DNA of 64,000 bases from Planctomycetota bacterium (GCA_965223505.1 CBDCWP010000026.1:96001-160000), one strand, 5' to 3'. Positions 339 to 34,270 are shown, counted from the first letter of the stretch. Notes: generated by a model not told the origin, from the sequence alone. Translations and numbers: made by a program.

Positions 339-417
339 GGGGGTGTAGCTCAGTTCGGTTTAGAGCGCCGGCCTGTCAAGCCGGAGGTCGCGGGTTCGAG
401 TCCCGTCACTCCCGCCA
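339..417 (+). tRNA. tRNA-Asp (GTC)
   Basis: Acceptor stem GGGGGTG/CACTCCC, D arm TAGCTCAG, anticodon arm CCGGC-CTGTCAA-GCCGG, T loop GGTTCGAGTCC, encoded CCA. Confidence 0.97.
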
Positions 418-421
418 TTCT
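366..421 (+). repeat. att core 1 (tRNA-Asp anticodon arm to 3' end)
   Basis: Identical to 21344-21399 and, through the CCA, to 26120-26171. Confidence 0.93.
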
Positions 422-525
422 CCCTGCGCGTCCCTGCCCTAACTCGCGCGACGTTGCACGCTTGGGGCCGCTCCCCTACCCGGGCGCCCGACCCCTTACA
501 TCTCGCAGCAATGTGCGAGGACGTG

Positions 526-570
526 CGAGGTCGTGGCAGAAGAACAGCAAAGAAGTGGTCATAGTCGCTT
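526..570 (+). repeat. 45-bp arm motif copy 1 (CGAGGTCGTGGCAGAAGAACAGCAAAGAAGTGGTCATAGTC[G/A]CTT)
   Basis: One mismatch to the four identical copies at 21503, 26280, 27972 and 34226. Confidence 0.95.
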
Positions 571-652
571 GGCGGCGCTTGCTTCGCGTGGCGCCGATGC
601 CAGTGGCGCGAGGTTCGCGGGACTGCCCGCCTCTGTCGGTAGCGTGAATACG

Positions 653-2050
653 ATGCGGGGTTCCCCTGGAGCATCCGTGACACAGGCCGGACACGAAGCC
701 GAGAGGCTGCTGAACGAGCTACTGGGCTCGTCGTTGTGCTTGGACTTCGTCCTGTGGTCGCCCCAGTTCGACGATCGCGGAACGACCAAGGAGGTGTGCG
801 ACCACGTTCTGGAGCAGTCCGGTCAAGCGATTCCGATCCAGCTGAAGACGCAAGATCCCGCAGCAGAGCGCGACGGTGCCCGCGAACGGAAGTGGCTTCG
901 GAAGCATGGCGGGAAGGCCGTCCGGCAGCTCTCCGGCTCGATCTCGACGCTCGCTCGCCGTGACATCGACGTTTCGCACTTGCGTCGCGGCAGCTTCACG
1001 ATCAAGGCGGCGTCACTGGAAGTGATCCACGCCGTAGCCCTCGTGGACTCCCAGCAGGTCGCGGCCCTTGGGCTTCCCACGACTACGTCGCAAGGGGTCC
1101 CCGCTCACACTCTCACCGTCGCCGACTTCGTCTGGCTCGCGAACGAGCTGATGACGGTCCCGGACATGTTCATGTACCTGGACCGCCGGAGCGAGACTCT
1201 GGGTCGCCTCGAGCTGCCCGTGGGTGCGGAGAAGGCCCTGTACGCCTGGTATATCACCCACAAGAACTCCTTCGCCGAGCTCCAGGATCTCCCGTCCGCG
1301 GAATCCGCGGCCGTGGACCTCTACGTCGGCGACAACCAAGCGTTCTACGAGATGAAGCGCCAGGACGACCGGTTGGCGAAGCACTACCAGGACCTCATTG
1401 ACGGCACGCACAACGTCAACCCGGAGCTAAATACGGAGATGCCCGCGGAACTGGCAGCGGGCTGGACCTGGGAGCAGGCAGAGCGCGACTACATCAGGAT
1501 CGCCTACGAGTTGAATGCCGTTCCACGTGCGTTTCGGCGCGAGACGATGCGCAAGTTCCTTCACAAGTGCGAACTGGCTGAGGGGTCGTGGCGCCCGAGG
1601 TTCTACAGCGAGTACTTCTCGCCTCGAGAGACCGTATTTGTCTTTGCATCGTTCGACGGAGAGCCACAGAAGGCTTGGACGTGGCTCAACGGTCTTGCGC
1701 GGGGCGCCTGGGCCGCGATCGCTGAAAGGGGCTACCCGGTTGCCCGCGTCGTCGTTGCGATGGTGCCGAGCCGCGCCGGCGGAGACGGTGCGTTCCGTTA
1801 CCTGCACCTGGAACCTGAAGGCGAACCGGGTCCCAGGGATCGCGAAGCAGCAGCCCACCTGTTCGGCGCGACCTTCTCGCAGGAGGTGAACGAATTTCCG
1901 CACTTGCAGGCCCGGCCGGGTGAACTCCGTACGTTCGGGCCCGTGCCCGGCGAAGAGGTGAGGGCCGCTGCCCAGCAAATGAAGATCGGACGCAACGCAC
2001 CATGTCCATGCGGAAGCGGACGGAAGTACAAGAAGTGCCACGGGGCGTAA
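653..2050 (+). CDS. Putative PD-(D/E)xK/NERD-like nuclease fused to a C-terminal SEC-C motif
   Basis: N-terminal KEVCD...IPIQLK nuclease-like motif; C-terminal KIGRNAPCPCGSGRKYKKCHG. Start moved to ATG 653 because the ORF-track start lies in the repeat arm. Confidence 0.7.
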   Translation: MRGSPGASVTQAGHEAERLLNELLGSSLCLDFVLWSPQFDDRGTTKEVCDHVLEQSGQAIPIQLKTQDPAAERDGARERKWLRKHGGKAVRQLSGSISTLARRDIDVSHLRRGSFTIKAASLEVIHAVALVDSQQVAALGLPTTTSQGVPAHTLTVADFVWLANELMTVPDMFMYLDRRSETLGRLELPVGAEKALYAWYITHKNSFAELQDLPSAESAAVDLYVGDNQAFYEMKRQDDRLAKHYQDLIDGTHNVNPELNTEMPAELAAGWTWEQAERDYIRIAYELNAVPRAFRRETMRKFLHKCELAEGSWRPRFYSEYFSPRETVFVFASFDGEPQKAWTWLNGLARGAWAAIAERGYPVARVVVAMVPSRAGGDGAFRYLHLEPEGEPGPRDREAAAHLFGATFSQEVNEFPHLQARPGELRTFGPVPGEEVRAAAQQMKIGRNAPCPCGSGRKYKKCHGA

Positions 2051-2155
2051 CGTACCGCCACACACACTGCCCCGCGATCGGCTCGCCGTCTCGGCGCCTC
2101 GTAGGAGGCCGCTACGGATCCGGCTGCGTCAGCTGTTTCCACTACGCTGAGTACC

Positions 2156-3004
2156 ATGTCCGACGTCACGACTGCCTGGATTCGCGCGACCGACGAAGAG
2201 CTGGCGCGTAGGGAGATCCCTGCGCGACGGCGCCCCTGGTCTGCCTGGAGCGAGTGGTCCAAGAAGAACGGACCATCCAGCCTGAGCGGCCCGGCCGCTC
2301 AGTTGATCTTCAAGTGGTACGAGGAGAACTACACGCGCGACGCATTCATCGTCGGGAGCCTGTTCACCGGCGCCCTCTACTTTGATCAGGGCATCTGGCC
2401 CGTCGAGGTCCCACTGGTTTACGGTAGGTGCCGTCTGGATGTGAACGGAATGGTTGCCAGCATGCCGTCCATCGTTTTCGAGCGCATGGCGAAAGACCAA
2501 AGCGCTTTCCGCACTTTCGCCGCCCTCGCAGCTGACTGCATCGACTATGGCCTGGGATTCGACGATCTGGCGAACATCAGTCTGGCGTCTTCGCTGGCAA
2601 CTAACATGTTGGTCAGCGCCGACAAGGAGCTTCGCTCAGCGGTTGTCTTGTTGCTGTCAAATCGTCCCAATCAGAAGGTTGCTGAGTCTGCGCGCTTGGC
2701 AACAGAGATGTTCCTGAAGGGCTTTCTCGCTCACTACACGGGGCTTGACGAGAGAGGTGCCAGGAACATCGGCCACAATCTGCACAAGGCCCTCGATGAG
2801 TCCCTTGCTCACGACCCGAGTTCGGATCTTCGAGTCCTTAGCGGTCTGCTGGGCCGGCTCCCGGCCATCGCCGAGCGGTACAGGGTGGCGAAACGCTCGA
2901 TCGGTGAGTTGTGGAGCGCCTACTCACTAGCCCAGATCGCCGGGACTGCCCTTGTCCGATCCCTCTCTGATCGAGACTGTCGGCCGAGCATGATGGTGTC
3001 CTAG
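2156..3004 (+). CDS. Protein with C-terminal HEPN-like domain
   Basis: ARLATEMFLKGFL...GHNL...ERYR resembles the HEPN helical signature. Confidence 0.55.
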   Translation: MSDVTTAWIRATDEELARREIPARRRPWSAWSEWSKKNGPSSLSGPAAQLIFKWYEENYTRDAFIVGSLFTGALYFDQGIWPVEVPLVYGRCRLDVNGMVASMPSIVFERMAKDQSAFRTFAALAADCIDYGLGFDDLANISLASSLATNMLVSADKELRSAVVLLLSNRPNQKVAESARLATEMFLKGFLAHYTGLDERGARNIGHNLHKALDESLAHDPSSDLRVLSGLLGRLPAIAERYRVAKRSIGELWSAYSLAQIAGTALVRSLSDRDCRPSMMVS

Positions 3005-3373
3005 CCACCGTTTTGGACTCGCCGCCCAAAGGGGTCTTCATCTTCAGCGTGGGTTGCTCTAGGTAGTTGCACGTCAGCGCCGTCTCTTATCGTCACTTCA
3101 AGCTCGCTGGCGCCTGAGCCGGCCGAGAATGGGATCGGGCCGCATCCACGACCGTGCGCCCGACGCTATTCCCGCATGTCATCTACTGCGATGAGCCCTC
3201 CGGCACCTGAATGCGCATTGTCTTCTCAACTGTCACTCGCGCGCAGTCAAGTTCCACGTGGCTAGTGGGGGCACGGAACGATCGGCAGAGCGGGGAATGG
3301 TCTGCAAGCGGTATTCCCTTGGTCACACTGGAAGCAGCCTTGACTCTGAGTCTTGGCTGGAATCAACCCGTCG

Positions 3374-3841
3374 CTACTTCTTGCCGTTGGAGCCTTCGTC
3401 GGTGTCCGCCTTCTCGGCTTGGGCGTCGGTGAGCACGACTTCGGCCTTCCTCAGATTCATGATGGGCAAGAGTAGCGGCGGCTGACCAGCACGGACGGTG
3501 AGGCTCCAGACAATTTCCCTCAGGTAAGGCCAGAGAAACGCAGGTGCGTTGGTGCGTGCGAACTCCTCGGGGGGCATTGAAGGCTCGCCGGACCAGTTGA
3601 ACAGCGCCCTCATCACAATGGTAGCGTCGATCGCTGCCGTTTCTCCGTCCGCAGACTCAGACCGCAGCCCCGCAGTCACGACAATACTGCGGGCCTCTTT
3701 GTCGACGACGCTCCTGATGGCGTAGTCCCACTCGGGAGCACTGAGCTCGCTCTCGGCGCTCTCTTCGACACGGAAAGATGCAGACCGGAGCTTGATCTCC
3801 TTGGCTCGATAGCCCGACGGAGAACTCTTCGTGCGCGTCAT
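3374..3841 (-). CDS. SecB-like chaperone
   Basis: NAPAFLWPYLREIVWSLTVRAGQPPLLLPIMNL matches the SecB C-terminal signature; start overlaps the upstream stop (TGATG). Confidence 0.85.
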   Translation of the reverse strand: MTRTKSSPSGYRAKEIKLRSASFRVEESAESELSAPEWDYAIRSVVDKEARSIVVTAGLRSESADGETAAIDATIVMRALFNWSGEPSMPPEEFARTNAPAFLWPYLREIVWSLTVRAGQPPLLLPIMNLRKAEVVLTDAQAEKADTDEGSNGKK

Positions 3842-4272
3842 CAGGCGGCCAAACTGAAGCCCTGCATATCTTCGTCACTCAAATCGTCGTCAGTGGATCG
3901 GGGGCTCCACGCATTGCAGGACCAGAACCACTCGGTGTCGTGGACCACGATCGGATCACCGTGCGCATGATCGAGAAAGAACTCTCGAATTAGGACTTGC
4001 TCATGTTGGTCGGGATAGTGACGCTTCGTCGCCGAACGGTAGTGCGGAATGACGGACACGTCACAAAGCCTAGACGACTCGACGTCGGCGTAAACCTCAA
4101 GCATGAAGCGAACGAACTCCTCGCCGACGCCATCAGGCAGGCCGAACACGTCGAGCACTGGTCCTCCCTCATCGACAGGGAGGCTGTGGTCGAGTTGCGT
4201 GACCACTTGGGGCCACCGACTTCGCAGCACCCGCGTGTAGTGGTTCAGGATTTCGTCGTCGCTGTTCGCCAA
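3841..4272 (-). CDS. Putative antitoxin with an aromatic/acidic C-terminal tail ending in LAA
   Basis: Lies between the HEPN and SecB-like genes, tightly coupled; tail TEWFWSCNAWSPRSTDDDLSDEDMQGFSLAA; TTG start. Confidence 0.55.
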   Translation of the reverse strand: MANSDDEILNHYTRVLRSRWPQVVTQLDHSLPVDEGGPVLDVFGLPDGVGEEFVRFMLEVYADVESSRLCDVSVIPHYRSATKRHYPDQHEQVLIREFFLDHAHGDPIVVHDTEWFWSCNAWSPRSTDDDLSDEDMQGFSLAA

Positions 4273-4274
4273 GG

Positions 4275-4703
4275 CTATGTACTCACGTTCATGCTACCGA
4301 GATACTCGGGGATTCGCTCCCAAAGGGGAGCCAATTCGCCGGCTTCCACATCGTCCGGCTTGTAGTCCGACTTGATCCTCAAATCCCTGAGGCTCCTCGC
4401 GAAGGGCCCAGGCGGAGTGCCACCGAGGAGCGACCCGGCGAGTGGTGCGCAACCGCAGACAACGTCATGCGGCCATTGGCCACTTGCGTCCCCAGCACCC
4501 TGTTTGAAATCGCCAGGGACGCTTCCTCTGCTGGTCATGGCACCGACTATCGCCTGGTAGATGGCGTAGTAGGCTCGGCTGGCAGCACCGTTCATTTGAC
4601 GCGCCCTGTGTAGGGCCCTAGCTTCGCGCCATGTTGCCGCAGCCTTGCGCTTCACCGGTCCACCATCTCCCCACACGGTCGGCCCCCCGCGGGACCGATC
4701 CAC
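4275..4703 (-). CDS. HEPN domain protein (putative toxin)
   Basis: SRAYYAIYQA...WPH...LRDLRIKSDY is typical of small HEPN proteins; start could instead be GTG 4655. Confidence 0.8.
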   Translation of the reverse strand: MDRSRGGPTVWGDGGPVKRKAAATWREARALHRARQMNGAASRAYYAIYQAIVGAMTSRGSVPGDFKQGAGDASGQWPHDVVCGCAPLAGSLLGGTPPGPFARSLRDLRIKSDYKPDDVEAGELAPLWERIPEYLGSMNVST

Positions 4704-4859
4704 AATGCTACACGGCCGTCAGGTCTTGAGACAAGCGGTTGACACCGAGCGCTCTCGCCCACGCTCCGTGGGCCCGTGAGGGCGATCTTCATCTCGGTGC
4801 GGCTCGCGAGGCGACGAAACCTGAGCAGGCAGCGTCCCGTTCCAGGACACCTAGCCTGA

Positions 4860-5020
4860 ACTCCGCCTCGGCCGTACGCAGGTCCAACAGCGCTACGTCT
4901 GTGTACGTCTTCATCGTCAATCCGCGAGTGCCACGCCAGCGCGTGTGCGGTTCGCGGATGCTCGCCGGGGGAGGACAGCCGCGTGATGTACGTCACACGG
5001 AAGGAAGTCCAGCACGCAAC
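4860..5020 (-). pseudogene. Frameshifted remnant of a tyrosine integrase C-terminus
   Basis: VLDF/RVTYITRLSSPGEHPRTAHALAWHS/LTMKTYTDVALLDLRTAEA aligns with the C-terminus of the integrase at 6220-7452. Confidence 0.8.
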
Positions 5021-5051
5021 CGTCATCGGCTTACTCGCGCCTAGAACGTCA

Positions 5052-5447
5052 TCACTTGGCCTTGCTGATACTCCCGTCACGTATGCGCATGCACCATCGA
5101 CCCTCTCCGTCCGACACGGATCTCGACCACTTTCGGATCTTGTCCCAGTACCGCAGCAAGGTGAGAGCCTGCTGGCGAGCACGGAAGTTGGCGAACCCCT
5201 TCCCCAAGAAGAGAATTGGGCGAGAGCAGTCCGCCCATGCTCTCCTCTCGCGCTTCCCACGATCAAGTGTGACCACTACCCAGCCCGTTCTCGAATTGAG
5301 CTTGAGGATCCACTCAGCGTCAGGCGTCGGGGGATCAAAACTCTCCGTAAGGTGCTCGTACTCTTCTAACTCACCCTCAAGTTGGGCCAGCCTCGCGAGG
5401 AACTCGACAATGGGTCGCGGGACGCAGTTGTCGAAGAAGAACTTCAC
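5052..5447 (-). CDS. PIN-domain toxin (VapC45/DUF5615-like)
   Basis: MKFFFDNCVP...TPDAEWI...WVVVTLD PIN acidic residues; GTG start overlaps the antitoxin stop (GTGA). Confidence 0.85.
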   Translation of the reverse strand: MKFFFDNCVPRPIVEFLARLAQLEGELEEYEHLTESFDPPTPDAEWILKLNSRTGWVVVTLDRGKRERRAWADCSRPILFLGKGFANFRARQQALTLLRYWDKIRKWSRSVSDGEGRWCMRIRDGSISKAK

Positions 5448-6130
5448 GCAGCCGATCGATCGTCCAGGAACTGCTCGAATCGAACAGCGGCGCGGACCTC
5501 CGCGCCGGATGCACCGTACCAAGATGCCGTCGCCTCCACACCAGCCCCAGAGAGTGCGTGTGCCGCAAGAACCTGAGTTTCGACTCCCGCGATCGAAGTA
5601 ACGGGACGTCCAAACCGGTACTCAGGAGAGACCATCACAAGATCACGGACGTCGTGTAGCCCCCTACCGGGGTTCCACTTCGCCACCAGCCCGTCATCGC
5701 CAAACGTCACATCTTGAAGGTAGGGGTCCAGAATCGCGTGCCAGGCTTGCTGATTCTTGAGTAGCTCAACGAGGAGCGGCTCCTCCTCTTCCTGCGTGAT
5801 CTCGAGGAAGATGGTCCGGCCGAGTGTCCGAATGCGTTGACTCGCAAACGGATAGTCCAACGCCCAGGTCGTCCGGGCGCGATGAAGTGCCCGCCGAATG
5901 GCCTGAAGACTGACGCCCCGACTCCGAAGAATGTGAACCAATCTAAGTTGCTGAAGATCCAGAAACCCGAGAACAAGATCATCGTCGTAGCGGGGGCGCC
6001 ACAGGGGGCCGTAGCAGCGTCCCTTGGTCTGGTATCCATGCGTCCAATCGCGGACTCGGCGACGCGGAACACCGGTTAAGCGGCTCGCCGCCGGGACGTC
6101 GTACAGGCCATGACCGAGGACGGCGCTCAT
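5444..6130 (-). CDS. HTH + DUF433 antitoxin (VapB45-like)
   Basis: LYDVPAASRLTGVPRRRVRDW HTH; VSPEYRFGRPV...ASWYG...VRAAVRFE DUF433-like; ATG at 6130. Confidence 0.85.
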   Translation of the reverse strand: MSAVLGHGLYDVPAASRLTGVPRRRVRDWTHGYQTKGRCYGPLWRPRYDDDLVLGFLDLQQLRLVHILRSRGVSLQAIRRALHRARTTWALDYPFASQRIRTLGRTIFLEITQEEEEPLLVELLKNQQAWHAILDPYLQDVTFGDDGLVAKWNPGRGLHDVRDLVMVSPEYRFGRPVTSIAGVETQVLAAHALSGAGVEATASWYGASGAEVRAAVRFEQFLDDRSAA

Positions 6131-6219
6131 ACAACAACCACCTCTTTCTCCTTGCTCATATCGTACGTCGGTGCATCGCGCTTGTGTCCAAAGCGCGGGT
6201 GAAGGCAATTGTAAGACGC

Positions 6220-7452
6220 TCAATCGACATGAGCGGAGAGGGTCGGGCCGCAAGTCAGGCGTTTCATACCCGAGGACGCCGATGCGGCGCCTGCCTCGAC
6301 GGCGGAATGGAGGTCTAGAAGCCGCACGTCGGTGTAGGTCCTCATAGTCAACTCAAGCCGCGAATGACGAGCCAGCGCCTGCGCTGTCCTGGGATGAACG
6401 CCAGCAGCCGATAGGCGGCTGATCATCGTGACACGCAGGCTGTGGAAATCGACGATGCGCCCCTGGTCGTCCTCGCCGTCGAGCCTGGCGTGCTTGAGAT
6501 CGGCGTTGACGGTGCCGTGGGTCGGGAACAGGCGGCCCGGGAACAGGGCGTCGTGCGGCGCGGTCCCGAGCCCGGCTCCATCAACGCGAGCGCGATGCTC
6601 TGCCAGCCCGTCGGCCACGTCGCTGCGAAGGGGCAGTTCCGTCTGCTTCTTGGACTTCGTGATCGAGGCCCGCACGGTCAGCGTGCGCCGCTCCTCGTCC
6701 ACGTCGGCCCAGGTCAGGCCCCGCAGCTCGCCCTTGCGAAGCCCGGTGCCAAGCGCGAATAGATACAGGTACGCCCGCGTCTCCCCCAGCCGTCGCAGCT
6801 TCGCTTCCTGCGGGGGCGTCACGCCAGTCCGTGTGCGCTTGACGCGTGCCCGTTCCAAAGGACGCCGTCGGGCGGCGTCGAGCAGCCGCTCGACCTCCTC
6901 GTCGGTCAGGGCGCGGCGCACACGACGTCGATCCGTTTCCTCGTTGCGGGGCGAGAGGCCCTCAAATGGGTTGTGCGACCAGCGGCGTGTACGAACGAGC
7001 CAGTTGCCGAACTGCCGCAAGGATGCGAGTCGCTTGTTCACGGTTCGCGCCGAGAGCCGTTCCGCGAGCTCGGCCAGCCAATGCTGCGCCTCCACCAGGT
7101 CGATCTGAGGCAGCGTGCGCGCCTTGGTCATCTCGAGGTACGTGCGGAGCGAATGAACGCGATCGCGATGGTGCTCCTTGCTCACACCGCGGCTCTTGAG
7201 GAACGCACAGAACTCGTCGATGTGCTCCTTCAGCGGTCGCTCGGCGTTTTCCTCGAACGGGTTCGCCAGCCCCACCGCCTTGCGTTCCTCGCGCTCGATC
7301 ATTTGCAACGCCCGCATTTCGGCCACACGCTTGTCGCGGGTACCGAGCGACTTGCGGATGAGCTTGCGGTTGACGTTGGCCTGGACCCAGTAGACGCGAC
7401 CGGTCTGCATCTCGCCCTGGCGGTTCTTGAACTTGGGGCGGTAGATCCTCAT
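6220..7452 (-). CDS. int: Tyrosine recombinase/phage integrase
   Basis: Catalytic R (GTGLRKGEL), K (ITKSKK), HxxR (FHSLRVT), H (LARHS), Y (RTYTD); ATG 7452 overlaps the upstream stop. Confidence 0.95.
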   Translation of the reverse strand: MRIYRPKFKNRQGEMQTGRVYWVQANVNRKLIRKSLGTRDKRVAEMRALQMIEREERKAVGLANPFEENAERPLKEHIDEFCAFLKSRGVSKEHHRDRVHSLRTYLEMTKARTLPQIDLVEAQHWLAELAERLSARTVNKRLASLRQFGNWLVRTRRWSHNPFEGLSPRNEETDRRRVRRALTDEEVERLLDAARRRPLERARVKRTRTGVTPPQEAKLRRLGETRAYLYLFALGTGLRKGELRGLTWADVDEERRTLTVRASITKSKKQTELPLRSDVADGLAEHRARVDGAGLGTAPHDALFPGRLFPTHGTVNADLKHARLDGEDDQGRIVDFHSLRVTMISRLSAAGVHPRTAQALARHSRLELTMRTYTDVRLLDLHSAVEAGAASASSGMKRLTCGPTLSAHVD

Positions 7453-7967
7453 TTGCCCGACTCCCGGACGGTCCCGAGGGGCCAGCCGTCGGGTCCGGGG
7501 GAACGGGACAGGCGTACGTGGCCGCACTCACACTGGAAGGGACCGAGGTCGCCCTCCGCGTCCCAGACCTCGACGTCGTTGAGCGTCGCGCGATGAAGCG
7601 CCATGCCCGAGAGGTCCTTGCCGGTGTAGAGCGCGGTGGCGCCGGCGCAGGCCCTGCACATGCGCCGCTCGTTGTCGCCGTAGTACACGGCGTGGTCGAT
7701 GAGAACGGCTCTCGGCTCGGTCACCTCGTCCGTAGCGACATCGCGCGCCGCCATCAGCAGCGCGTTGGCGGCCACACAGGCGTTGGAGAGGCCGTCGAGC
7801 TGATGCCGGTACGCCGAAGCAATGCCAAGTGCCTGCAGCGGCGCTGCGTTACTCAGAGCATCCAGAGCCTGCGCCAGTTCGTCTGCAAGCGTCTCAGCCT
7901 TGTCCCGGCCGTCGTCGAGCATCTCCGCCGCGGCGGCAAGCAGAGAGGCCCTGGGCGCGGCGCTCAC
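7449..7967 (-). CDS. Hypothetical protein with CxxC and CxC motifs
   Basis: ORF coupled to both neighbours by overlapping start/stop; CRAC, CECGH. Confidence 0.6.
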   Translation of the reverse strand: MSAAPRASLLAAAAEMLDDGRDKAETLADELAQALDALSNAAPLQALGIASAYRHQLDGLSNACVAANALLMAARDVATDEVTEPRAVLIDHAVYYGDNERRMCRACAGATALYTGKDLSGMALHRATLNDVEVWDAEGDLGPFQCECGHVRLSRSPGPDGWPLGTVRESGK

Positions 7968-8224
7968 TTCGCACCGCCCTTCTTGCTGGCCTCATCGATG
8001 CCGAAGAAACGAGGACCCGAGACGCTCGCGTAACCGGTAATCGCCTTCGCGACGGCGGTCAACGAGCGGTACGACGCGCCCTTGTAGGTGAAACCATCGG
8101 CCGAGACCGTCACGACGTGCTTCTTGCCCTTGTAGAGACGCTCGATCGTCTCGGCCTTCTTGCGCTTCGGTGCGCGCTTCTTCGCGGCCTTGCGCTTCGT
8201 CGCAGTCTTCTTCTTCGCGGCCAT
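7964..8224 (-). CDS. DUF2924-like small basic protein
   Basis: ERLYKGKKHVVTVSADGFTYKGASYRSLTAVAKAITG...SGPRFFG. Confidence 0.8.
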   Translation of the reverse strand: MAAKKKTATKRKAAKKRAPKRKKAETIERLYKGKKHVVTVSADGFTYKGASYRSLTAVAKAITGYASVSGPRFFGIDEASKKGGAK

Positions 8225-8409
8225 CACGCACCGCCTTCCTTCTCCAGGCGGCCTTTGAGCTCGCGCAGCAGGTCTTCGGCTTCCTCGCGCGTGTCGCACG
8301 CGCACATCAGTCCCTCGCCCAGGACGTACAGCCCGTCCTTTCGGCGCTCGATGCGAAGCGGCCCCGACGTGTCGAACGTCTCGCCGTCGCTGAAGGTCAA
8401 CTTGGTCAT
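8224..8409 (-). CDS. Small hypothetical protein
   Basis: MTKLTFSDGETFDTSG..., RBS GAGGAG, stop overlaps the next start. Confidence 0.6.
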   Translation of the reverse strand: MTKLTFSDGETFDTSGPLRIERRKDGLYVLGEGLMCACDTREEAEDLLRELKGRLEKEGGA

Positions 8410-25295: not shown

Positions 25296-25300
25296 CGCCT

Positions 25301-26330: not shown

Positions 26331-26432
26331 TCTCAGTCAGCCGGCCGAGTGTGGCGTTCCGACCGATCGGCAGGGACGGAGTGGTGACCCGGGTCCCAAC
26401 TTCCGGTTACCGAGCGGGGTGAAGCTACTCGC

Positions 26433-27957
26433 GTGAGGCGTTGTCTTCCCCATCTGCTCTTGCTCGGCGCCATCACACTGGTAACAGCCTTCACGGCCTC
26501 GACGGTCGGAGAAACGTCTGCAGCACCTGAGGCCGACGCTGGCGGGCCGTGCGGCCTACCCGACAGCGGTGCCGTCTGCGAACGGCCGCTTCTCGGCGCG
26601 AAGCCATCAGACGGAATCGATGAAAGTCCTTGGACGCAATCGCCGCCAGTCGAGCTTCCGACGAAGGCCCGCGGGCTCGGCGCGAGACCGTTTGGCGGCA
26701 TGGATTTCGATCCTTGGACGCAATCATCGCCCACCGATCCTCGGACGCAGTTGCCACCGGCCGTTCCGCGGAAGCGATCGCCGCCCGCCGTTGTTCCGTC
26801 GCGAGCCGGACGGCGCGACAAGAGCAAAGAGAAGTGGCGAGTTCAACGCGCACTACCGGGTACGAACGGCGAACTGATCGTCGCTGAGGAGTATCTCGAA
26901 GAAGCGAGCGCGACCAAAGCGGCCCTCGTCGCCTATGACCTGTCCTCGCTTGCACCTAGTTTCCGTGGGCATAGCGCCTCCGCGCCGCTCAAAGGCCACG
27001 AGCCACTTGCTGCATGGCCCCCCCGCGACCATGACTGGTGGACCCGGCTCGCTACGGCCATCGTGGACAGGGTCGGCGAATCCGGCTGGGCGAAAGACAG
27101 TACGCTCCTCGCCTGGGACAAGGAACGGGCGCTGCTCTTCGCGGCTAGGGGACATCGACCTCGAGGTGTCGTGGTGCACGCACGCACCTCGCTTCGGGAC
27201 GTTCTCGACGAGTCTCGTTGGATCCCACGTCAACGTCACGATCGAGATCCCAGACACAGACCCGTTGAGCTGGCGAGGCCGCCTGCCCGCAGTGCCGGGC
27301 ACCAGCTCGGTGATCCCCCTGGGCGAGGGCCTCTCGTGTGAAATCGAAGTAGGCGAGCCGAAGCGCGCCGACCGACCCCTGAAGCGCACCTGGCGCCGCG
27401 CCTCACCGTCGTTAGGTCCCCCACCCCCAGCGGGCGAGGGCTCGGTACTCGTGTTCGATCTCTCAGGCTCCGAGAGCGGGAAACTCGGCGAGGGGCAAGT
27501 CACCCTGCGTGGCCCACATCAGGTCGTCCAAAGTGATGTCCGACGCTGTTCTCCTGCGTGGCTTGCGGCGGCGTACGACCGAGACCCTCTCCGACCGCCA
27601 GGAGTCGGCACCGGACCCGTTGCCTGTGGGCAGATTCGCGTGCAGGCATCGTCGTTCGACGCCACCCGCGAGCCCTCTCGTATCGATCTTGTGCTCGTGG
27701 TCAGCGAGTGGACCGGGGACACACGGCTAGTTCAACTGCGACCTGGCGGCACGCCGGAGTTTGACCGCAGCCGCTTAGTGGAACTTCCGTCGGATCATGC
27801 CGTGGTCACGAGCCGCCACGTTTTCATTTCGCCGGAAGGCGAAGGCTCCGTCTCCTTTGCCGGCGACATCGGCCGCGGTCCCGAGCTCTTCACCCTTGCC
27901 TTACAGCGACGTCAGGTGCCGCAAGATACGGATGCAGGCTCGCGTCGCGGGCAGTGA
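26433..27957 (+). pseudogene. Probable frameshifted secreted protein (two overlapping ORFs)
   Basis: Signal peptide at 26433; internal PWTQS repeat; plausible frame switch near 27150 into ORF 26935-27957. Confidence 0.4.
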
Positions 27958-27971
27958 CCAGTCAGGAAGCA

Positions 27972-28016
27972 CGAGGTCGTGGCAGAAGAACAGCAAAGAA
28001 GTGGTCATAGTCACTT
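27972..28016 (+). repeat. Solo 45-bp arm motif, copy 4 (no tRNA core)
   Basis: Exact match to 21503-21547; lies 14 bp after the preceding stop codon. Confidence 0.95.
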
Positions 28017-28106
28017 GGCGGCGCGGGTCTCGGGTGCGCTCACGAGCGTCAAGCGCTACTCTCGTCGGTAGCTCCCCCTCGATGGGCGTGTCCTCAGGGC
28101 CTGGCC

Positions 28107-28550
28107 ATGACCGAGCTCATGATCATCCAAGACAGCCTCTGTCGTCCCACGGCGTTCTTCTGGAACGGTGCGATCGACGCAGCTCGCCTGCGAGCGTGGC
28201 TTCACCGCAACGGTCTAGAAGCCAAGTGCCCGAACGACCTTGTCCGACTGTGGCAAGTCACAGGCGGCGGAAACTTCTTCGAGTCGGAGACCATCCTTGG
28301 GCCGTACGGAGATGCCCAAATGGGGGACGACTTCTTGGGAGCGAACGAGCACCTGAGGGCTCGGGGGCTGCCGCCCCGGTTCCTGGCGTTCTCTACGGGA
28401 ATGTCCATCGGTGCCGTGGATGTTTCCACAGGTGAGTTCGTGGAGCTGGGCAATGAAGGACTTGACGTGCGCTGTCGCTACGTGTCGCTGGACCATTGGT
28501 ACTCAAGTACGGTCAGAGACGAACTCGGCGCGAGGTATGGCTTGGCCTGA
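28107..28550 (+). CDS. SMI1/KNR4 (SUKH)-like immunity protein
   Basis: CPNDLVRLWQVTGGG...FLAFS...SLDHWY pattern; 147 aa. Confidence 0.65.
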   Translation: MTELMIIQDSLCRPTAFFWNGAIDAARLRAWLHRNGLEAKCPNDLVRLWQVTGGGNFFESETILGPYGDAQMGDDFLGANEHLRARGLPPRFLAFSTGMSIGAVDVSTGEFVELGNEGLDVRCRYVSLDHWYSSTVRDELGARYGLA

Positions 28551-28823
28551 GCGTCCCCAGCGCCGCGACGACGGCGCGGGCCAGCGTCGCCGTCGTCAGG
28601 GCAACTGCGAAACTCCATCCGTTCACCGGCGTATGACTCCAATCGGCACAATGATGGATCATACTGGACCGAATCGCCGCCGCCCCTGCGGAAGTGCAGC
28701 GGGGGCCAATAGGGCGGAGTATGGCCCGGAGAGCACTCGGGTATGAGACGTCGCTTCCGTCTAAGCTAGCCGGCCGTCCGGGAAGAGCACTTCGATGCGG
28801 ATCGAACGGAAGTACGTCGGCGA

Positions 28824-29686
28824 GTGAGCACAGCTAGAGCACATCTTCAGCAGGCTACAGTCGTGTTCGCACTCGTGGCCGCTTGCGGCCTGCGAACACC
28901 CACGACAGTTCATGGGGAACCAACTCCGGCGGACTCCACACTTGATGTTCACATAGTCGGCGCGACAGATGCCGGCGACAAGTGGATGCGAGTTGTGGTT
29001 CGCGAGTTGATTCCGTCCTCAACGAGACGACATCACTCGATTGGACAACTGCTTTGGGTTGCTAGAGTCAAGTCTAAGGGTGGTAGAGCGCGGACTTCTC
29101 TTCCTCATAGCGCAGTTCGCGAGTTTCTGGCGGTCTCTGCGTCAACTTCGCAGTCCTGCGAGTACTGGAACGCCGCGGGCCCGCTGCAAGTGGACAAACC
29201 GAATGTGGTAAGGATCCCTGTAGAACTGACGCTGGCACGAACCGCCACTGGTAAAGTCCGTCACTCCAATGAGTGCCGCTGCGAGAAGTCAGTCGTCTGG
29301 TTTCGCAGAGCCAAAGCTCCCTGGGCACCACGCGGTTCAGCGGCCTCCGCGATGCGCCTTTTCCCACTTGATTTGGGCGGTGAGCCCAAAGCAGTAGTCT
29401 CCAGGCTGTGGGTATCCCGGTCTGTGCAGGTGCAGCCGTCTGGCCGATATGTACTTAGAGGGATCGAAGCCGGCGCTGACTACGATCTTGACGTGGTCTC
29501 CTCTACCTGTGGAGAGTCTCAGACCGTTACCTGGAAGGCCGAAGATGGAGAAAGGGCGCCCGAGCTTGTGGTTCAAGAGCCGGGCGACCTTGTCGTACGC
29601 ATCGATTGGCGCGTCGAGCAATCGAAGTCCCGCTATTCGCTCGATTTGGGACCCGCTCCCTTCAGACGCCGACGGTTCAGCGCGAC
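28824..29686 (+). pseudogene. Secreted beta-sandwich (carboxypeptidase-regulatory-like) protein, 3'-truncated by transposon copy 2
   Basis: Signal-like N-terminus; SGRYVLRGIEAGADYDLDV; ORF runs into the transposon end. Confidence 0.55.
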
Positions 29687-29694
29687 TGTGTCCC

Positions 29695-30801
29695 CTACGC
29701 GTTAGGCCGCCTCCGCCAAGCGGAAACTAGTGTTGATAAACGCCCTCTCCGGAACTGTAGATAGCCGTGCTTGCAGAGCGTTCTCTGCGTCGCGCTGCGG
29801 TCGATTGACGCGCGCTCGATGCACGTCGGCATTCTAGCGTTTCTTTCCTTGAATGTCTTGAGCGCGGCATCGGTCTCGATCTTCAGATCGTGCGCGAATG
29901 CCGTTCTCTCTTGCCTCGTGATGGGCCGGCGGTCTTCGAGGGCCTCCGCCGGCGTGGGCCCGGTCGCACCCCATGGCCTCGCCGTCGTATTCGCAACGAG
30001 CAAGGCGTCGTCGAGGTTTTGAGGTAGCCAGATGCGGGGATGTCCTTCCATCTGCGCGATGTGCTGTACACGTCGCTTGAAGTTCCCGCCGCTGCGCTCG
30101 CACGCGCCGTTGTAGGCGGGCGTGTACGGCGGCGACGTGAGTGGCGTGATGCCGTGCTCCTCGAGCAACGCGGCCGTCTGTTCCGAGCGAAATGCGCCGG
30201 CGTTGTCCTTCTTCAGAATGAGCGGCGCTCCGAACAGCGTGATCAATGCGAGCAGCGCCGCGCACACAGTCTTCGTCTTCTCGCCCCGGCAGGCTACGGC
30301 CGCCAGCTGCGCTCCGCTTCCGAGATCGCGAACCAGGAACAGTCGATCCTTGCCCTGCCACAGGCCAGCCTTGGGCCTGGTGAAGTCCGCCGCCCACACC
30401 GCCCCGGCACGAACCCACTTTAGCCGCCTCCGATACCAGCGCCATCGACGCAGCGCCACCCGTAGCAGGCGCCTCTTCATCTCTGAGAGCACTCGATACG
30501 GCACGTCGCTGAACATTCCCCGAAGTACGGTCACACCCGAGAACGGCCCGAGCTCGAACATCGCACGCAGCACCTTCTGCCGCTTCGCTCGTGGTACGTC
30601 ATCGGCCTTGCGGCCACGCTTCTCGTACACCGGCTTGCCCTGGCGAACGCGAAGCTCCCACCGCCTGATCGTTCGCTCGGCCACGCCAAGGACTCGCGCC
30701 AGGTAGGCGCGTGTTTCCTTGTCCCAGCCACTTCGCCGCATCACCTCCACGGCCTGAAGCCGGAACTTCACCTGCTCCTCGTACGACATCCTCTCGCTCA
30801 T
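29695..30801 (-). CDS. Second DDE transposase (copy 2)
   Basis: Near-identical to 16070-17176. Confidence 0.9.
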   Translation of the reverse strand: MSERMSYEEQVKFRLQAVEVMRRSGWDKETRAYLARVLGVAERTIRRWELRVRQGKPVYEKRGRKADDVPRAKRQKVLRAMFELGPFSGVTVLRGMFSDVPYRVLSEMKRRLLRVALRRWRWYRRRLKWVRAGAVWAADFTRPKAGLWQGKDRLFLVRDLGSGAQLAAVACRGEKTKTVCAALLALITLFGAPLILKKDNAGAFRSEQTAALLEEHGITPLTSPPYTPAYNGACERSGGNFKRRVQHIAQMEGHPRIWLPQNLDDALLVANTTARPWGATGPTPAEALEDRRPITRQERTAFAHDLKIETDAALKTFKERNARMPTCIERASIDRSATQRTLCKHGYLQFRRGRLSTLVSAWRRRPNA

Positions 30802-31193
30802 CCCTGCCTCCATCCTCCCTGGTGCGCCACATGCAGCGCGTGCCGAACCCGCGGCGCCTCGCCAAGCCCGCAATCGAAGATGTCCACCTGCGTTCGCACC
30901 ACGCGCACTCGGTGCCGTAGCTTCGACACCTCGCGCTCAAGCTCATGATCGTCGTCAGGCAGCACGGCGCGCGGCCGGCCACAAGCGCCGCCTTCAAGCG
31001 CCTCAACGCCGGCCTGCAAGAACCTACGTCGAAGATCCTGGAAGCGCGTTCGGCCGATGCCCAAACGCTCGCACGCATCGCCAACGCTCCACTGCCGGCC
31101 AAGCGTGAGCAGAATCACCTTCACGCGCTCACGCGCCGTCTCGCTCGCCGACGTGCGCGCCACCAGCGTCGGCATCTCGCTTCGCCGTCCCAT
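30798..31193 (-). CDS. Accessory HTH protein (copy 2)
   Basis: Near-identical to 15678-16073. Confidence 0.8.
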   Translation of the reverse strand: MGRRSEMPTLVARTSASETARERVKVILLTLGRQWSVGDACERLGIGRTRFQDLRRRFLQAGVEALEGGACGRPRAVLPDDDHELEREVSKLRHRVRVVRTQVDIFDCGLGEAPRVRHALHVAHQGGWRQG

Positions 31194-31635
31194 CGCCGTT
31201 TCCTTTCTCTTCAAGGCCCGTGCGCAGCGTCTTCAGCACCGTCTTGCCGCGGTGGCCGCGCTTGGCGCTGCGGCCCTTCTTCGAGGATGCCTGCTTGCGC
31301 CCGCCGCGCGCCAGCCCCAGGCTTCGATTGGCCGCACGAAGCAGGGACTGGTGCCGCCGAAGCTCCTTCTCCAGGTGCTGTTTCTCGGCCTTCAGCGCCA
31401 ATATCTCGCGCTGCGGCGTCTTCTGGATGCCGCGCTTCTTCGGCTCCATCGCCCGCAGCATGCCCTTCAAAGCACGGCCTTCGAGCTGGTAGTAGCGCGA
31501 GAGCGACACGCCCATCTGCTCAGCCGCCTCGCTCGTGCCGATCTCGCCTGAGAGCGCTTCCAATATCACTGCCACGTGCTTGCGCGACGTCTTGCTCGCC
31601 GTGATCGTCGTCACGTTCTTCTTCTTCGTAGGCAT
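31129..31635 (-). CDS. Accessory HTH/coiled-coil protein (copy 2)
   Basis: Protein identical to 15236-15742. Confidence 0.8.
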   Translation of the reverse strand: MPTKKKNVTTITASKTSRKHVAVILEALSGEIGTSEAAEQMGVSLSRYYQLEGRALKGMLRAMEPKKRGIQKTPQREILALKAEKQHLEKELRRHQSLLRAANRSLGLARGGRKQASSKKGRSAKRGHRGKTVLKTLRTGLEEKGNGDGTAKRDADAGGAHVGERDGA

Positions 31636-32996
31636 TACTCCTGCTCCTTCGTGGGCGCCTCGTCAAGGGCCTTGAGCTCCTCGAGCACGTCGTCGAGCAC
31701 GCTCTCGCCCGGCCCCTCCTTGGCCGCATCCTTGCGCTTGCCCGATGCCCGCAAGTCGACCTCTTCGCGAACGCCGTCCTTGTCCGTCAACAGCACCTTG
31801 TCGCCCTCGGCGTGAAGCGACACCGGCTCGTCGCCGATTCGACCCGCCAGGTACAAGGGCTTGCGCGGCTCACCGTGAAGCGCCAACTCCTTGGCGTTCG
31901 TTGCAACCGCCTCCTGCAGGGCGCTGCGCACGCTCTGCGAGGCTTCGAAGAATCGGTCCGCTGGAACCAGGCCGCCAATGCCCTGGTGGGTGCGCTGGAA
32001 GTTGTAGAAGCCGATGAAGTGGGCAATGCGCGTCTTGGCGTCCTCCATGCCGCGGAAGATCGCTCCGTCGATCAGCTCGCGAAACAGCGTGCCCCAGAAA
32101 CGCTCGATCTTGCCAAGCGTCTGCGGCCGCCTCGGCCTGGCCACGATCTGCTTGATGCCGCGCTTCTCGCAAAGCTTGCGAAACGAGCTCTTCCCGCGCC
32201 AGGTCTGATACTGCGCGCCGTTGTCGGTCAAAATCTCCTCGGGCGCGCCGAAGTTCGCGATCGCCTGCTCGAACGTCTCCCGAACCATCGCACCCGACGC
32301 CGATGCGTGAAGCCCGAAGCCCACGATGAAACGCGAGAAGTCGTCCAGGTAGCAAACCAGGTGCACGCGCCGACGCTCGCGCTTCAGGAGAAACGTGAAT
32401 AGATCCGTTTGCCAAAGCTCGTTCGGTCGCTTGCGCTCGAATCGCTTCACCTTGGGCGGGTTGCGCGCCGGCGCAACCGCCTCCACCTCGTAGCCCGCTT
32501 CCTTCAGCACGCGCTGAACCGCGCCGCCTGAAACCGAGATACCCTCCGTTCGGATCAGCATGTCGTGGATCCGATCCTGGCCCCAGTCCGGATGCGCGTC
32601 CTTCATCATCAGGATCGCACGGCGCGCCGGCTCGGGCAGCCCGCTGCCCTTCATGCCGCGCTTGTGCCCGAGCAAACCGGCGGGGCCCTCCTCCTCGAAC
32701 TTGCGACGCCACGCGTACAGCGACGCCGTGCTCACGCCGATCAGCGGCGCGAACTCCGTGGCCGCAAGCTCGCTGCGAAACCAACAGTCAAGCGCCAACA
32801 GGCGCTGCTCGCCCGTGAACTCCGCGCTACGCGATGCGTCGCTTCGCACCGTTCGCGCACGACGGCTGCGTGTGCCGCGGGGCACGTAGCCGCTCACGGC
32901 CCGCTTCCTCCGCTCGGCTCCGGCGACTTCGTCGCCTCCGCCTCCCTTCGGAAGCGGGCCGTCCAACCTCTCGGGCGCCTTCGTATCGTCGTTCAT
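31635..32996 (-). CDS. IS481-like DDE transposase (copy 2)
   Basis: Protein identical to 13875-15236. Confidence 0.92.
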   Translation of the reverse strand: MNDDTKAPERLDGPLPKGGGGDEVAGAERRKRAVSGYVPRGTRSRRARTVRSDASRSAEFTGEQRLLALDCWFRSELAATEFAPLIGVSTASLYAWRRKFEEEGPAGLLGHKRGMKGSGLPEPARRAILMMKDAHPDWGQDRIHDMLIRTEGISVSGGAVQRVLKEAGYEVEAVAPARNPPKVKRFERKRPNELWQTDLFTFLLKRERRRVHLVCYLDDFSRFIVGFGLHASASGAMVRETFEQAIANFGAPEEILTDNGAQYQTWRGKSSFRKLCEKRGIKQIVARPRRPQTLGKIERFWGTLFRELIDGAIFRGMEDAKTRIAHFIGFYNFQRTHQGIGGLVPADRFFEASQSVRSALQEAVATNAKELALHGEPRKPLYLAGRIGDEPVSLHAEGDKVLLTDKDGVREEVDLRASGKRKDAAKEGPGESVLDDVLEELKALDEAPTKEQE

Positions 32997-33095
32997 CTCT
33001 CTTCCTTTCCCTGGCACATAGGCCAGCCAAAGGAGAGAGCCTTATCAACACCGGTTTCCTGCCCTTCGCAGGTCACCTATTCGTCGAGGGAGACA

Positions 33096-33901
33096 AGCCA
33101 TGCACGCCAGAGTCGCACATCAGTTCCGAAGTCCTGGCCCGTTGCCGCCTTGAGTGCCTTGGAACATAGGTCGCGCCTGCGCGTCGTTGTCTGTCGCGCG
33201 AGAGCATCAACGAGAGCGCTTGCCGCCTTTGGATATGGATGCGTCCGGAACCAGTCGAGTACGAACTCTTCATCATCCGCTTCCAGGCCGGCATCGAGTG
33301 CACGCACGAGTCGAGGTGCTGCGGCCGCCGCATCCACTGCAGCGAGGGCTTGGAGAGCGGCGAAGCGTACCTCCGAATCCCCGGCGCCCGTGAGGTTCGC
33401 TAGGCGAGCGGAGAGTTGTCGCGCAGACGCTCCCAGCAACTCGACGGCACCAAGCACAGTCCGGCGAACGTAGGAGGGCTGGGATTCGTCTTCAGCGACT
33501 TCGAGCACCTCTGAGGAGTGGGCCCGAGCGGCGTCACGTATCCCGTCTCGGGCGGCTGAAACCACGTCACCGGGTTGAGTCTCGTCGAGAGCCGCGAGCA
33601 ATACGGAACGACTCTGCTCGAACGAGAGCGTGCCCAAATGGCGGAGCGCCTTCAGCTTCGCTTGGTCGTGCCCTGACGCGCGGGCGCGATCGAGAAGTGC
33701 CTTCGTGGCCTGGCGGTCACCGGTGGCCGCCCTTAGAGCCAGCATGGCGGCGCTGGCTTCCGCGGCATTGAGCTCCGGTTCTGATTGGACGATGGCGGAG
33801 GCGAATTGCTGCACGTCGCTCCTGCGCCGAGATGAGCCTCTATGTGAGGCGCCTGCCAGCCTCTCTTGCGCGCGTGTTGCTCGGTCGGCTTGAGGATCCA
33901 A
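33096..33901 (-). pseudogene. HEAT-repeat protein fragment
   Basis: DSEVRFAALQALA, TGQDFGTDVRLWRAWL; last codons supplied by the transposon; 5' end uncertain. Confidence 0.6.
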
Positions 33902-34221
33902 AGGAGGACATAGAGGTTGCGCTCCCCTGCGCGCGGACCCTGAATCGGCACGAACGCTGGCTCACTCAGCGGCTGTTCGATGCCGTCATGGCGCTGCACG
34001 GCCGGCATCCGAAACGCGGTGAGGTCCTCCTTCACCTCAACGCGTTCGTCCGCACCCACACCGACGTCGTCCTGAAGATTTGGGCCGACGCAGTCGAAGC
34101 GACGATCGTGAACTGGTTGAACTTCGCCGGATCGCTCCGGGACCTTCCTGCAAGCGCCCTCGATCCGTATCCAGAGGCACGCAAGGCGGTGGCGTTCATC
34201 AGGAAACTGCCGCGCCGATGA
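33900..34221 (+). pseudogene. Possible C-terminal gene fragment whose stop abuts arm motif copy 5
   Basis: Protein-like frame DIEVALPCARTLNRHERWL...FIRKLPRR-stop with no convincing start. Confidence 0.35.
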
Positions 34222-34225
34222 AGTG

Positions 34226-34270
34226 CGAGGTCGTGGCAGAAGAACAGCAAAGAAGTGGTCATAGTCACTT
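34226..34270 (+). repeat. Solo 45-bp arm motif, copy 5 (no tRNA core)
   Basis: Exact match to copies 2-4. Confidence 0.95.

Follow-up and report, generated by a model that had tools for sequence, protein, structure and literature searches.

The 64,000-nucleotide (nt) stretch of Planctomycetota DNA analyzed here (GCA_965223505.1 CBDCWP010000026.1:96001-160000), which we call the window, carries five copies of a 45-bp motif and is a tandem ("accreted") array of related integrative elements at one tRNA-Asp gene, a known pattern. Its sequence and position identify the motif as native DNA of the attachment (att) site, where it forms the outer block of the integrase-proximal arm. Three copies stand in such arms, past a tRNA 3' half, and two, which we call solo copies, stand among cargo genes. 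The reading that we prefer, to which we assign a probability of about 0.55, is that elements accreted at tRNA-Asp, that the motif is a binding block of the arm, and that the solo copies were carried in or left by sibling elements. Overall, the locus can be considered an ordinary accretion array with a cargo hot spot between arm and integrase and, in addition, a solo-arm feature. The motif can be assigned to the arm with much more confidence than the solo copies can be assigned an origin.

The original prediction had described five same-orientation copies, four of them identical and one with a single mismatch. The coordinates and the plus strand were confirmed for all five, and none (0.00) is expected in the shuffled window. 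A profile built from the five copies recovered the same five only (E <= 8e-24; runner-up E 6.6). With a G+C count of 22/45, the motif is AT-rich for this genome (60-71% G+C in the window). The copies are located as follows, distances being counted from the CCA of the tRNA and flank positions being numbered outward from the motif.

526-570, plus strand: copy 1, with one mismatch (A to G at motif position 41), in the arm of element E1, 108 nt past CCA.
21503-21547, plus strand: copy 2, exact, in the arm of E2, 107 nt past CCA.
26280-26324, plus strand: copy 3, exact, in the arm of the oldest, truncated element E3, 108 nt past CCA.
27972-28016, plus strand: copy 4 (solo), exact, with homology from about -8 to +12.
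34226-34270, plus strand: copy 5 (solo), exact, with homology from about -10 to +6.

The measured distances agree with the 105-110 bp first estimated for copies 1 to 3. An exact search with a 22-mer from the motif center in 185,579 species genomes, a collection outside which the source genome itself lies, gave 0 matches, and a blastn search of plasmids and phages with arm plus motif (105 nt) gave none. A protein database search with a spurious minus-strand open reading frame (ORF) running through the motif (peptide SDYDHFFAVLLPRP...) returned three candidates, none of which scored. One frame of the motif reads RGRGRRTAKKWS followed by a stop, and a coding function was rejected because the upstream ORFs are not in that frame.

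ARAGORN detected a single tRNA in the window, Asp(GTC). The 52-nt block that spans the 5' strand of its anticodon stem through the CCA is exact at three sites, and copies 1 to 3 belong to repeats of ~230 nt composed of tRNA half, spacer and motif. Related right-arm sequence of ~108 nt precedes copies 2 and 3. The components of these sites are listed below.

339-417, plus strand: tRNA-Asp(GTC), the integration target (ARAGORN; Rfam tRNA, 72 bits), of which 366-417 is the 52-nt common block.
493-525, plus strand: the part of the E1 arm before the motif, with CCTTACAT, the dyad CTCGCA-N6-TGCGAG and the first GTGCGAGG repeats; phased GTGC repeats lie at 513-535.
21236-21343, plus strand: right arm of E1, with three phased GTGC repeats at 21238-21260.
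21344-21395, plus strand: displaced 3' half of tRNA-Asp, internal att site 1 (exact 52-nt repeat).
26012-26171, plus strand: right arm of E2 plus the second tRNA half (repeat comparison, exact tRNA repeat).
26120-26171, plus strand: second displaced 3' half of tRNA-Asp (exact 52-nt repeat).

This layout of right arm, core and left arm corresponds to attL followed by the two internal att sites of a tandem array. An intact tRNA stands at one end and identical displaced 3' fragments follow in direct orientation, as in tRNA-targeting islands. The first element, E1 (418-21343, 20.9 kb), looks complete, with an integrase, DUF2924, Prim-Pol/AAA_25 and ParB_N-methylase genes (Pfam). E2 (21396-26119, 4.7 kb) has both att ends, and no integrase was found in it by Pfam or by tblastn with the E1 integrase, so that it is an inner element lying between two att sites, as in accretion arrays. 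E3 begins at 26172, and exact and mismatch searches of the window found no fourth tRNA fragment that would close it. Within E2, a perfect tandem duplication of 2 x 64 nt (100%) was also seen at 23408-23535, overlapping an ORF at 23415-23801.

The conservation profile of the three arm copies, in pairwise comparisons, is uneven. The tRNA part is identical at 52/52 positions, the spacer at 46-55/75 (61-73%), positions -33 to -1 at 27-31/33 (82-94%), the motif at 44-45/45 (98-100%), and positions +1 to +27 at 8-16/27, which is near random. Because the non-functional tRNA halves have remained 52/52 beside such a spacer, the crossover for copies 1 to 3 is placed in the tRNA, the identity block that is exchanged; no other placement accounts for this profile. 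The proposal that an integrase built the array holds for copies 1 to 3. By our own arithmetic, 45 unchanged bases at a background identity of 73% have a chance of ~7e-7.

A run of three 10-bp-phased GTGC(R)AGG repeats is completed by the first ~17 nt of the 45-mer, and three related words phased at 11 bp occupy the remaining ~28 nt together with the dyad AAGTG-N8-CACTT. The window has four instances of GTGC-N6-GTGC-N6-GTG, where 0.07 would be expected, and all are in att arms: at 513, 21490 and 26267 in left arms and at 21238 in the right arm of E1. As far as a sequence pattern goes, arm-type repeats are thus found in both arms apart from the core, as in heterobivalent att sites. The repeats of the motif had been said to be echoed in the left arm; the phased GTGC triple is indeed a robust common feature, but the sequence echo in the right arms is weak, consisting of one 7-mer in E1, which is not significant, and of the 11-mer GCGAGGTCGTG in E2, which is modest. 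This anatomy and the profile above are direct observations. Most likely the motif comprises predicted arm-type sites of the integrase and a putative site for an accessory factor.

Three integrase sequences were found in the window.

6220-7527, minus strand: int1, a tyrosine integrase (gene call of 410 amino acids, 6223-7452; Pfam, AlphaFold2 (AF2) model, fold matches).
40715-41632, minus strand: int2, an N-terminally truncated paralogue of int1 in the same orientation, without an adjoining motif.
4870-5020, minus strand: a C-terminal integrase fragment (tblastn with int1; residues 358-409, ~52 residues, 57% and 76% in two segments, E 5e-10).

The int1 protein is a tyrosine recombinase with a catalytic domain (Pfam Phage_integrase, 1.2e-20) and a SAM-like domain. 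Its AF2 model (mean confidence score, pLDDT, 92) has an N-terminal five-strand beta-sheet plus helix followed by the SAM-like and catalytic domains, and its fold matches include Tn1549 Int, full-length lambda Int, which is among the top ones, and XerA (E ~1e-10). Int2 shows 88% amino acid identity to int1 residues 197-415, lacks the N-terminal ~195 residues and is probably the integrase of E3. A profile search found no remnant of the motif beside the stop codons of int1 or int2, and no further recombinase was found beside the motifs by Pfam or by tblastn with int1. The fragment at 4870-5020 lies inside the E1 cargo, 1.2 kb from the intact int1, which suggests that pieces of two sibling elements have been joined in the cargo region of E1; together with the truncated int2 it shows repeated recombination among sibling elements. 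The C-terminal tail of int2 departs from that of int1 after ...LLDL(H/R)SAVE, and neither an att arm nor a motif follows it. Int2 abuts an IS3-type helix-turn-helix (HTH) ORF (41368-42030, minus strand), and a gene for an RRM-domain RNA-binding protein (40022-40357) and then a short, very basic K/Q-rich ORF (~40445-40548) precede the int2 remnant.

The arm identity of the motif was assessed in 80 loci around relatives of the integrase, taken with 10-kb flanks, in which the integrases are at best 46-51% identical. The int1 homologues, the closest of which share 89% (P0002) and 76% (P0004) identity with it, come from Planctomycetota metagenome-assembled genomes (MAGs), and the family to which int1 and int2 belong adjoins tRNA genes in these relatives. 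The att-region profile built from the window matches next to the integrase in many of the 80 loci. In 10 of 12 loci examined closely, a tRNA or tRNA fragment lies on the strand opposite to the integrase, no more than 500 nt from the integrase 3' end; in the loci L012 and L074 the tRNA or arm lies 2.7-3.5 kb from the integrase. At least five tRNAs serve the family as targets (Asp, Gly, Met, Val and Arg), and its canonical order is tRNA, ~110-nt spacer, repeats, conserved block, and the integrase stop 25-230 nt further on. The GTGC triple pattern is present in 5 of the 80 loci, in four of these within ~100 nt of the att match. Since distant relatives carry 10-bp-phased GTGC repeats at the same position, between tRNA and integrase stop, the motif belongs to the native arm DNA, and the idea that it is integrase-related attachment DNA with direct repeats resembling arm-type sites is upheld. 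In L074 a counterpart of the entire motif, ~70% similar, stands equally far from its tRNA fragment, and the similarity takes in the right flank GGCGGCG...GGGT. No segment of the arm is better conserved in the tRNA-Gly subgroup than the block at the motif position (L009 and L002, 97% over 33 nt). The position of the block and the phased repeats in relatives are, like the anatomy, directly observed.

Two further observations were made in these loci. In a single MAG, the arms at L002 3100-3480 and L010 11150-11530 are ~96% identical from the anticodon stem of tRNA-Gly to the third repeat (GACGCTGG), the integrases are 58% identical in protein, and the arm identity falls abruptly in the middle of the motif equivalent; there too, arm and integrase have different histories. 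In L074, a (GGAGGC)n microsatellite of about ten units (13515-13575, minus strand) lies between the motif equivalent and the next gene.

The solo copies differ from the arm copies in what surrounds them. Sharing with the arm copies as detected by BLAST is confined to 27972-28023 for copy 4 (0 to +7) and to 34220-34276 for copy 5 (-6 to +6); inspection extends the homology on the left to about -8 and -10, respectively. The 400-nt flanks of the solo copies have no similarity to any other copy (Smith-Waterman against shuffles, z < 2.5). Left of the solo copies, no hidden tRNA fragment or arm was found by nhmmer (E <= 100), Smith-Waterman against shuffles or mismatch searches, and no core-like sequence or recombinase was found beside them. 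The left limits of homology fall in the right half of the conserved dyad CTCGCA-N6-TGCGAG; the right limits differ, from +4 to +12 or more. As had been noted, both copies stand directly after stop codons, which lie 14 nt (27955-27957) and 4 nt (34219-34221) before the motif. The genes in the two intervals that end at the solo copies are the following.

26433-27957, plus strand: gene X, frameshifted and read as two overlapping ORFs, with a signal-peptide-like N-terminus, filling the interval between motifs 3 and 4.
28107-28550, plus strand: a full-length SMI1/KNR4 (SUKH)-like immunity-type protein, 90 nt past motif 4 (Atlas score 0.96; no Pfam match).
29685-33096, minus strand: copy 2 of an insertion sequence (IS)-like unit, inside a probable minus-strand HEAT-repeat gene (29337-29684 plus 33097-33901).
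33832-34221, plus strand: an ORF of 129 amino acids, whose TGA stop results from one G to T change at -7 of the left flank of motif 5.

Gene X had been taken for a secreted protein as such. Its ORFs 26433-27338 and 26935-27954 match the same 564-amino-acid protein, at residues 133-213 (E 1e-6) and 339-564, the last residue (E 1e-22), and because both match this single protein they are considered one frameshifted and shortened gene. No Pfam family was found for its homologues of ~560 amino acids. At 26592-26750 gene X has two 75-nt repeats, 71% identical, encoding a repeated LGA(K/R)P..G.D..PWTQ peptide. For the ORF at 33832-34221 no homologue was found among 5.8 billion proteins.

Several features weigh against the preferred reading. 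The left limits of the two solo copies (-8/-9 and -10/-11) agree within ~2 nt, for which random end points of deletions or imports over the ~270-nt att region would have a chance of ~2% by our own arithmetic. The interval between motifs 3 and 4 (26325-27971, 1,647 nt) consists of one plus-strand gene with short spacers and is cassette-like. Flank bases of the solo copies have changed at 4/10 positions in copy 4 and 1/10 in copy 5, and all 45 motif bases have not; therefore constraint seems to act on the solo copies although no core site adjoins them, for which an arm-only binding site offers no obvious explanation. No solo copies of the equivalent block were found in the 80 loci, which come from distant relatives and cover 10-kb flanks, and a profile made from the tRNA-Gly subgroup alone misses the window motif. 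Across the family, the proposed homology of the right 28 nt rests on position, on the L074 match and on the words CCTTACA and AGTCAC.

The preferred reading, in which the binding of proteins, the derivation of the solo copies and any present mobility are inferred, runs as follows. Each element would integrate through a lambda-type tyrosine integrase, with the crossover in the anticodon-stem region of the tRNA, and would import its own perfect tRNA 3' half, giving three att sites in direct order. The first ~17 nt of the motif, as the end of the phased run, would probably be arm-type sites of the integrase, and the right ~28 nt would probably be a landing pad for an accessory or directionality factor. 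The spacer would drift, and the motif would be held invariant because int1, the only resident integrase still intact, reads it as a cis-acting site. In this lineage, the stretch from arm to integrase would have become a cargo hot spot. The solo copies inside the cargo region of E3 would then be arm blocks that were imported with cargo of sibling elements or left by the decay of siblings, and the integrase 3' fragment in the E1 cargo would have been left behind in the same way. The solo copies would thus be boundaries of imported segments and not sites of cassette capture.

The original prediction had instead proposed that the motif is a second recombination site that stacks cargo. In its present form, a block of ~57-65 bp would be a second site-specific recombination site at a resident copy of which cargo circles with one copy insert, in an integron-like manner without IntI or attC; we consider this unlikely. 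Both solo copies are sharply bounded with unrelated DNA on each side, their left limits nearly coincide, one interval between motifs contains just one gene, whose end lies 14 nt short of the next motif, the motif has remained invariant between drifted flanks, and all five copies are in direct orientation. Simple tyrosine-recombinase cores have inverted arms around a spacer of 6-8 nt, and AAGTG-N8-CACTT has this layout. On the other hand, copies 1 to 3 are fully explained by the tRNA crossover, with the tRNA half as the block exchanged, the right limits of homology vary, E1 has 5.6 kb of cargo and one motif only, and the dyad of the motif is unlike the tRNA core. The second interval (28017-34225; 6,209 nt, or 2,797 nt without the IS) gives no support for the co-oriented cassettes of an integron: it contains the plus-strand SUKH-like gene, the probable minus-strand HEAT gene, the IS and the ORF without homologues. 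Further points against an integron-like array are the folds, since none of 10 strands (five copies, both strands) forms an attC-like structure as single-stranded DNA (z -1.56 to +1.63 against shuffles) and the motif forms none as RNA, and the lack of solo copies in the 80 loci; nor was a second recombinase found beside the motifs.

In a related version, which we regard as rather improbable, the arm block doubles as a gene-capture site, and pieces consisting of a 45-mer plus a gene, either small circles or linear, are inserted at a resident 45-mer. The route of capture may involve the element's integrase with an accessory factor, or a cut at the conserved dyad just left of the motif. If this were true, the interval between arm and integrase would grow as a motif-gene-motif array, an integron-like platform without IntI or attC, and there would be a concrete mechanism for the refilling of cargo and defense hot spots of integrative elements.

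A further reading, which we regard as quite doubtful, is that the motif is or contains an outward-facing promoter, or an operator of the integrase or a directionality factor, which travels with cargo and is conserved for that function. A complete plus-strand gene starts 82-108 nt downstream of three of the five copies (653, 26433 and 28107), the motif is AT-rich for this genome, and the solo copies seem constrained without a core site. The sigma-54 consensus is TGGCAC-N5-TTGCW, with GG and GC 10 nt apart; TGGCAG-N5-CAGCA in the motif has the GG-N10-GC spacing and ~8/12 specified bases, which is not significant alone, and L074 keeps TGGCGG-N5-CAGCA followed by a plus-oriented gene. However, the next gene converges on the motif in two of the five copies and in typical relatives, the sigma-54-like match is missing in the tRNA-Gly subgroup, none of the five copies showed a sigma-70-like promoter, and promoters rarely need 45 invariant bases. 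No shared sequence that could be a common leader or promoter was found right of the motifs. As for a terminator, a weak minus-strand hairpin with a T-run was flagged at copy 5 only and is not kept in the tRNA-Gly subgroup, and the candidate was not adopted.

That the solo copies are plain scars of two more accreted elements, in which right arm, tRNA fragment and spacer were randomly deleted, would suit a locus with such heavy decay (truncated helicase, partial IS, truncated int2, integrase fragment, frameshifted gene X) and without a closing fourth tRNA fragment. This explanation is nonetheless very unlikely: two independent deletions would both have to stop at nearly the same point, within ~2 nt, and also to begin just past the ends of ORFs, and the 45 bases are intact with adjacent bases changed. 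A breakpoint shared by the solo copies had been proposed as the test against deletion scars, and it is this agreement of the left limits that was found. Least probable of all, to a degree that we hardly credit it, is an artefact or an RNA gene, since the metagenome-assembled source contig of 172,781 nt, which might have contained chimeric joins at a short repeat, was assembled through two 3.4-kb IS copies that are 99% identical (from which long reads or a robust assembly are inferred), and a small structured RNA has no Rfam match at any copy, a fold no better than shuffles (z -1.44 to +2.06) and unfavorable covariation (alifold +2.24).

The remaining features of the array are its cargo, its backbone and the IS-like units.

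653-6222, both strands: cargo of E1, from the arm to the integrase stop (Pfam, NCBIfam, PADLOC, Atlas, tblastn), with the next six features.
533 or 653 (alternative starts) to 2050, plus strand: SEC-C protein.
2156-3004, plus strand: ORF.
3374-3841, minus strand: SecB-like PD-T4-9_C protein (defense model).
3841-4272, minus strand: ORF.
4275-4703, minus strand: ORF with a weak HEPN match.
5444-6253, minus strand: ORF with a MerR-type HTH.
7449-13706: backbone of E1, with a conserved ORF (7449-7967), DUF2924, a Prim-Pol/AAA_25 primase-helicase (8882-11152) and a ParB_N-N6/N4 methylase (12372-13706).
13775-17186, plus strand: copy 1 of the IS-like unit, 3,412 nt with two rve transposases (Pfam), 99% identical to 29685-33096 and inverted relative to it.
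21575-22477, minus strand: remnant of an anti-phage helicase of ProA/Hhe/PDC-S37 type, the C-terminal ~300 of ~1,900 amino acids, with its stop 27 nt right of motif 2.
34525-37125, minus strand: CHASE-PAS-SpoIIE sensor phosphatase, with its stop 254 nt right of motif 5 and a third-position G+C content (GC3) of 0.84, which is core-gene-like.

Different cargo had been described as following each copy; of this cargo, the helicase fragment and the sensor phosphatase are encoded on the strand opposite to the motif and converge on it. The SEC-C protein had been called a nuclease; the SEC-C motif alone was found, and NERD occurs in 25% of the members of one low-scoring Atlas cluster. The backbone genes of E1 are common to L002, L003 and L010. 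The cargo hot spot of this lineage, between arm and integrase, extends over 5.6 kb in E1 and, up to int2, over ~14 kb in the decayed E3; in L012 TIR and ankyrin proteins are encoded between integrase and arm. The N-terminal part of the helicase is cut away beside a partial, 790-nt third copy of the IS-like unit (22510-23299); the unit also has an HTH ORF. The five motifs keep one orientation though three of them lie between the inverted IS copies; IS-mediated inversion as an explanation of the layout was rejected, none being seen, and target-site duplications of the IS copies were not found. At 17291-20010 an RHS-associated core protein with a variable C-terminus is followed by a transglutaminase-core protein, and homologues of the RHS N-terminal part number four in L009 and three in L012. 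With the SUKH-type gene at 28107, 8 kb away, this points to polymorphic-toxin cargo in the element family. Outside the island, five copies of a 52-nt unit at ~400-nt spacing (49478-52329; 62-100% identical) probably belong to a gene for a repeat-domain protein.

Lambda-type heterobivalent attP sites have arms with arm-type Int sites and sites for Xis and IHF. The array resembles them in the predicted extra N-terminal domain of int1, in direct repeats that are phased and stand in both arms at ~100-150 nt from the core, and in an accessory-looking segment beside the repeats on the integrase side. It differs in that the target is the anticodon stem of a tRNA, in that arm blocks also occur without cores, and in the 45-bp block, which is invariant among elements with spacers 61-73% identical. 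Integron cassettes depend on IntI, attI and attC, a folding imperfect palindrome, and are mostly single, co-oriented, promoterless ORFs each followed by the site. As in integrons, a short repeated site punctuates unrelated genes near a tyrosine recombinase, and one interval is a single ORF ending before the site. Unlike in integrons, there is no attC-like folded palindrome, the genes do not all point the same way, the recombinase is a lambda-type integrase with a domain resembling an arm-binding domain, the site is native arm DNA of a tRNA-integrating element, and in place of an integrase adjoining its attI the nearest motif is 5.6 kb from int1 and 6.4 kb from int2. The dif site is a 28-bp XerC-spacer-XerD sequence with an 11-6-11 layout; by inspection the motif contains only the dyad AAGTG-N8-CACTT, with 5-bp arms and an 8-nt spacer. 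The Xer-dependent dif modules of Acinetobacter plasmids are similar, as far as the portions of PMC13141974 and PMC6449649 used here describe them, in that copies of a short site bracket unrelated accessory genes without integron machinery, and different in that the block of the window is 45-57 bp long, always direct and unlike dif, with no Xer involvement indicated.

The array also resembles the ICESt1/CIME accretion arrays, in which, according to the portion of PMC5704250 drawn on, several elements lie in direct order at the 3' end of one target gene with internal att sites, and elements are decayed. The inner element E2 has kept its att ends and lost its integrase, and inner elements with both att ends and without an integrase are the cis-mobilizable elements of accretion arrays in that portion of PMC5704250. 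The phylum and the integrase family are different here, and two core-less copies of the outer arm among cargo are not described in the same portion of that paper. The array is in this respect ordinary tRNA stacking, here documented for an uncharacterized Planctomycetota integrase family with at least five tRNA targets, and should the solo copies be inert scars, what is left is a well-annotated case of accretion followed by decay. The tycheposons of Prochlorococcus, in the part of bioRxiv 10.1101/2020.12.28.424599 on which we rely, are likewise tRNA-targeting tyrosine-recombinase elements with cargo, in which successive integrations at the same site push older elements inward and islands are littered with partial tRNAs and fragmented integrases. 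The remnants there, within the scope of that part, are partial tRNAs, whereas two of the five repeats here are without any part of a tRNA.

What goes beyond ordinary stacking is the hot spot of defense-type cargo between arm and integrase, in the window and in L012, together with the invariant 45-bp block that bounds this hot spot and recurs in it. The defense-type cargo includes the PD-T4-9_C-like gene, the Hhe/ProA-type helicase and the weak HEPN match in the window, and TIR in L012. A fixed position with fast-changing, largely defense-type cargo is also the property of the hot spots of P4 and P2 elements, for which the mechanism of cargo swapping is stated to be unresolved in the portion of PMC13586616 considered here. 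In contrast to the hot spots as that portion presents them, an invariant arm block bounds the hot spot of the array and also recurs inside its cargo, and such a portable invariant flank is a candidate for cargo exchange, either as a recombination site or as a homology anchor.

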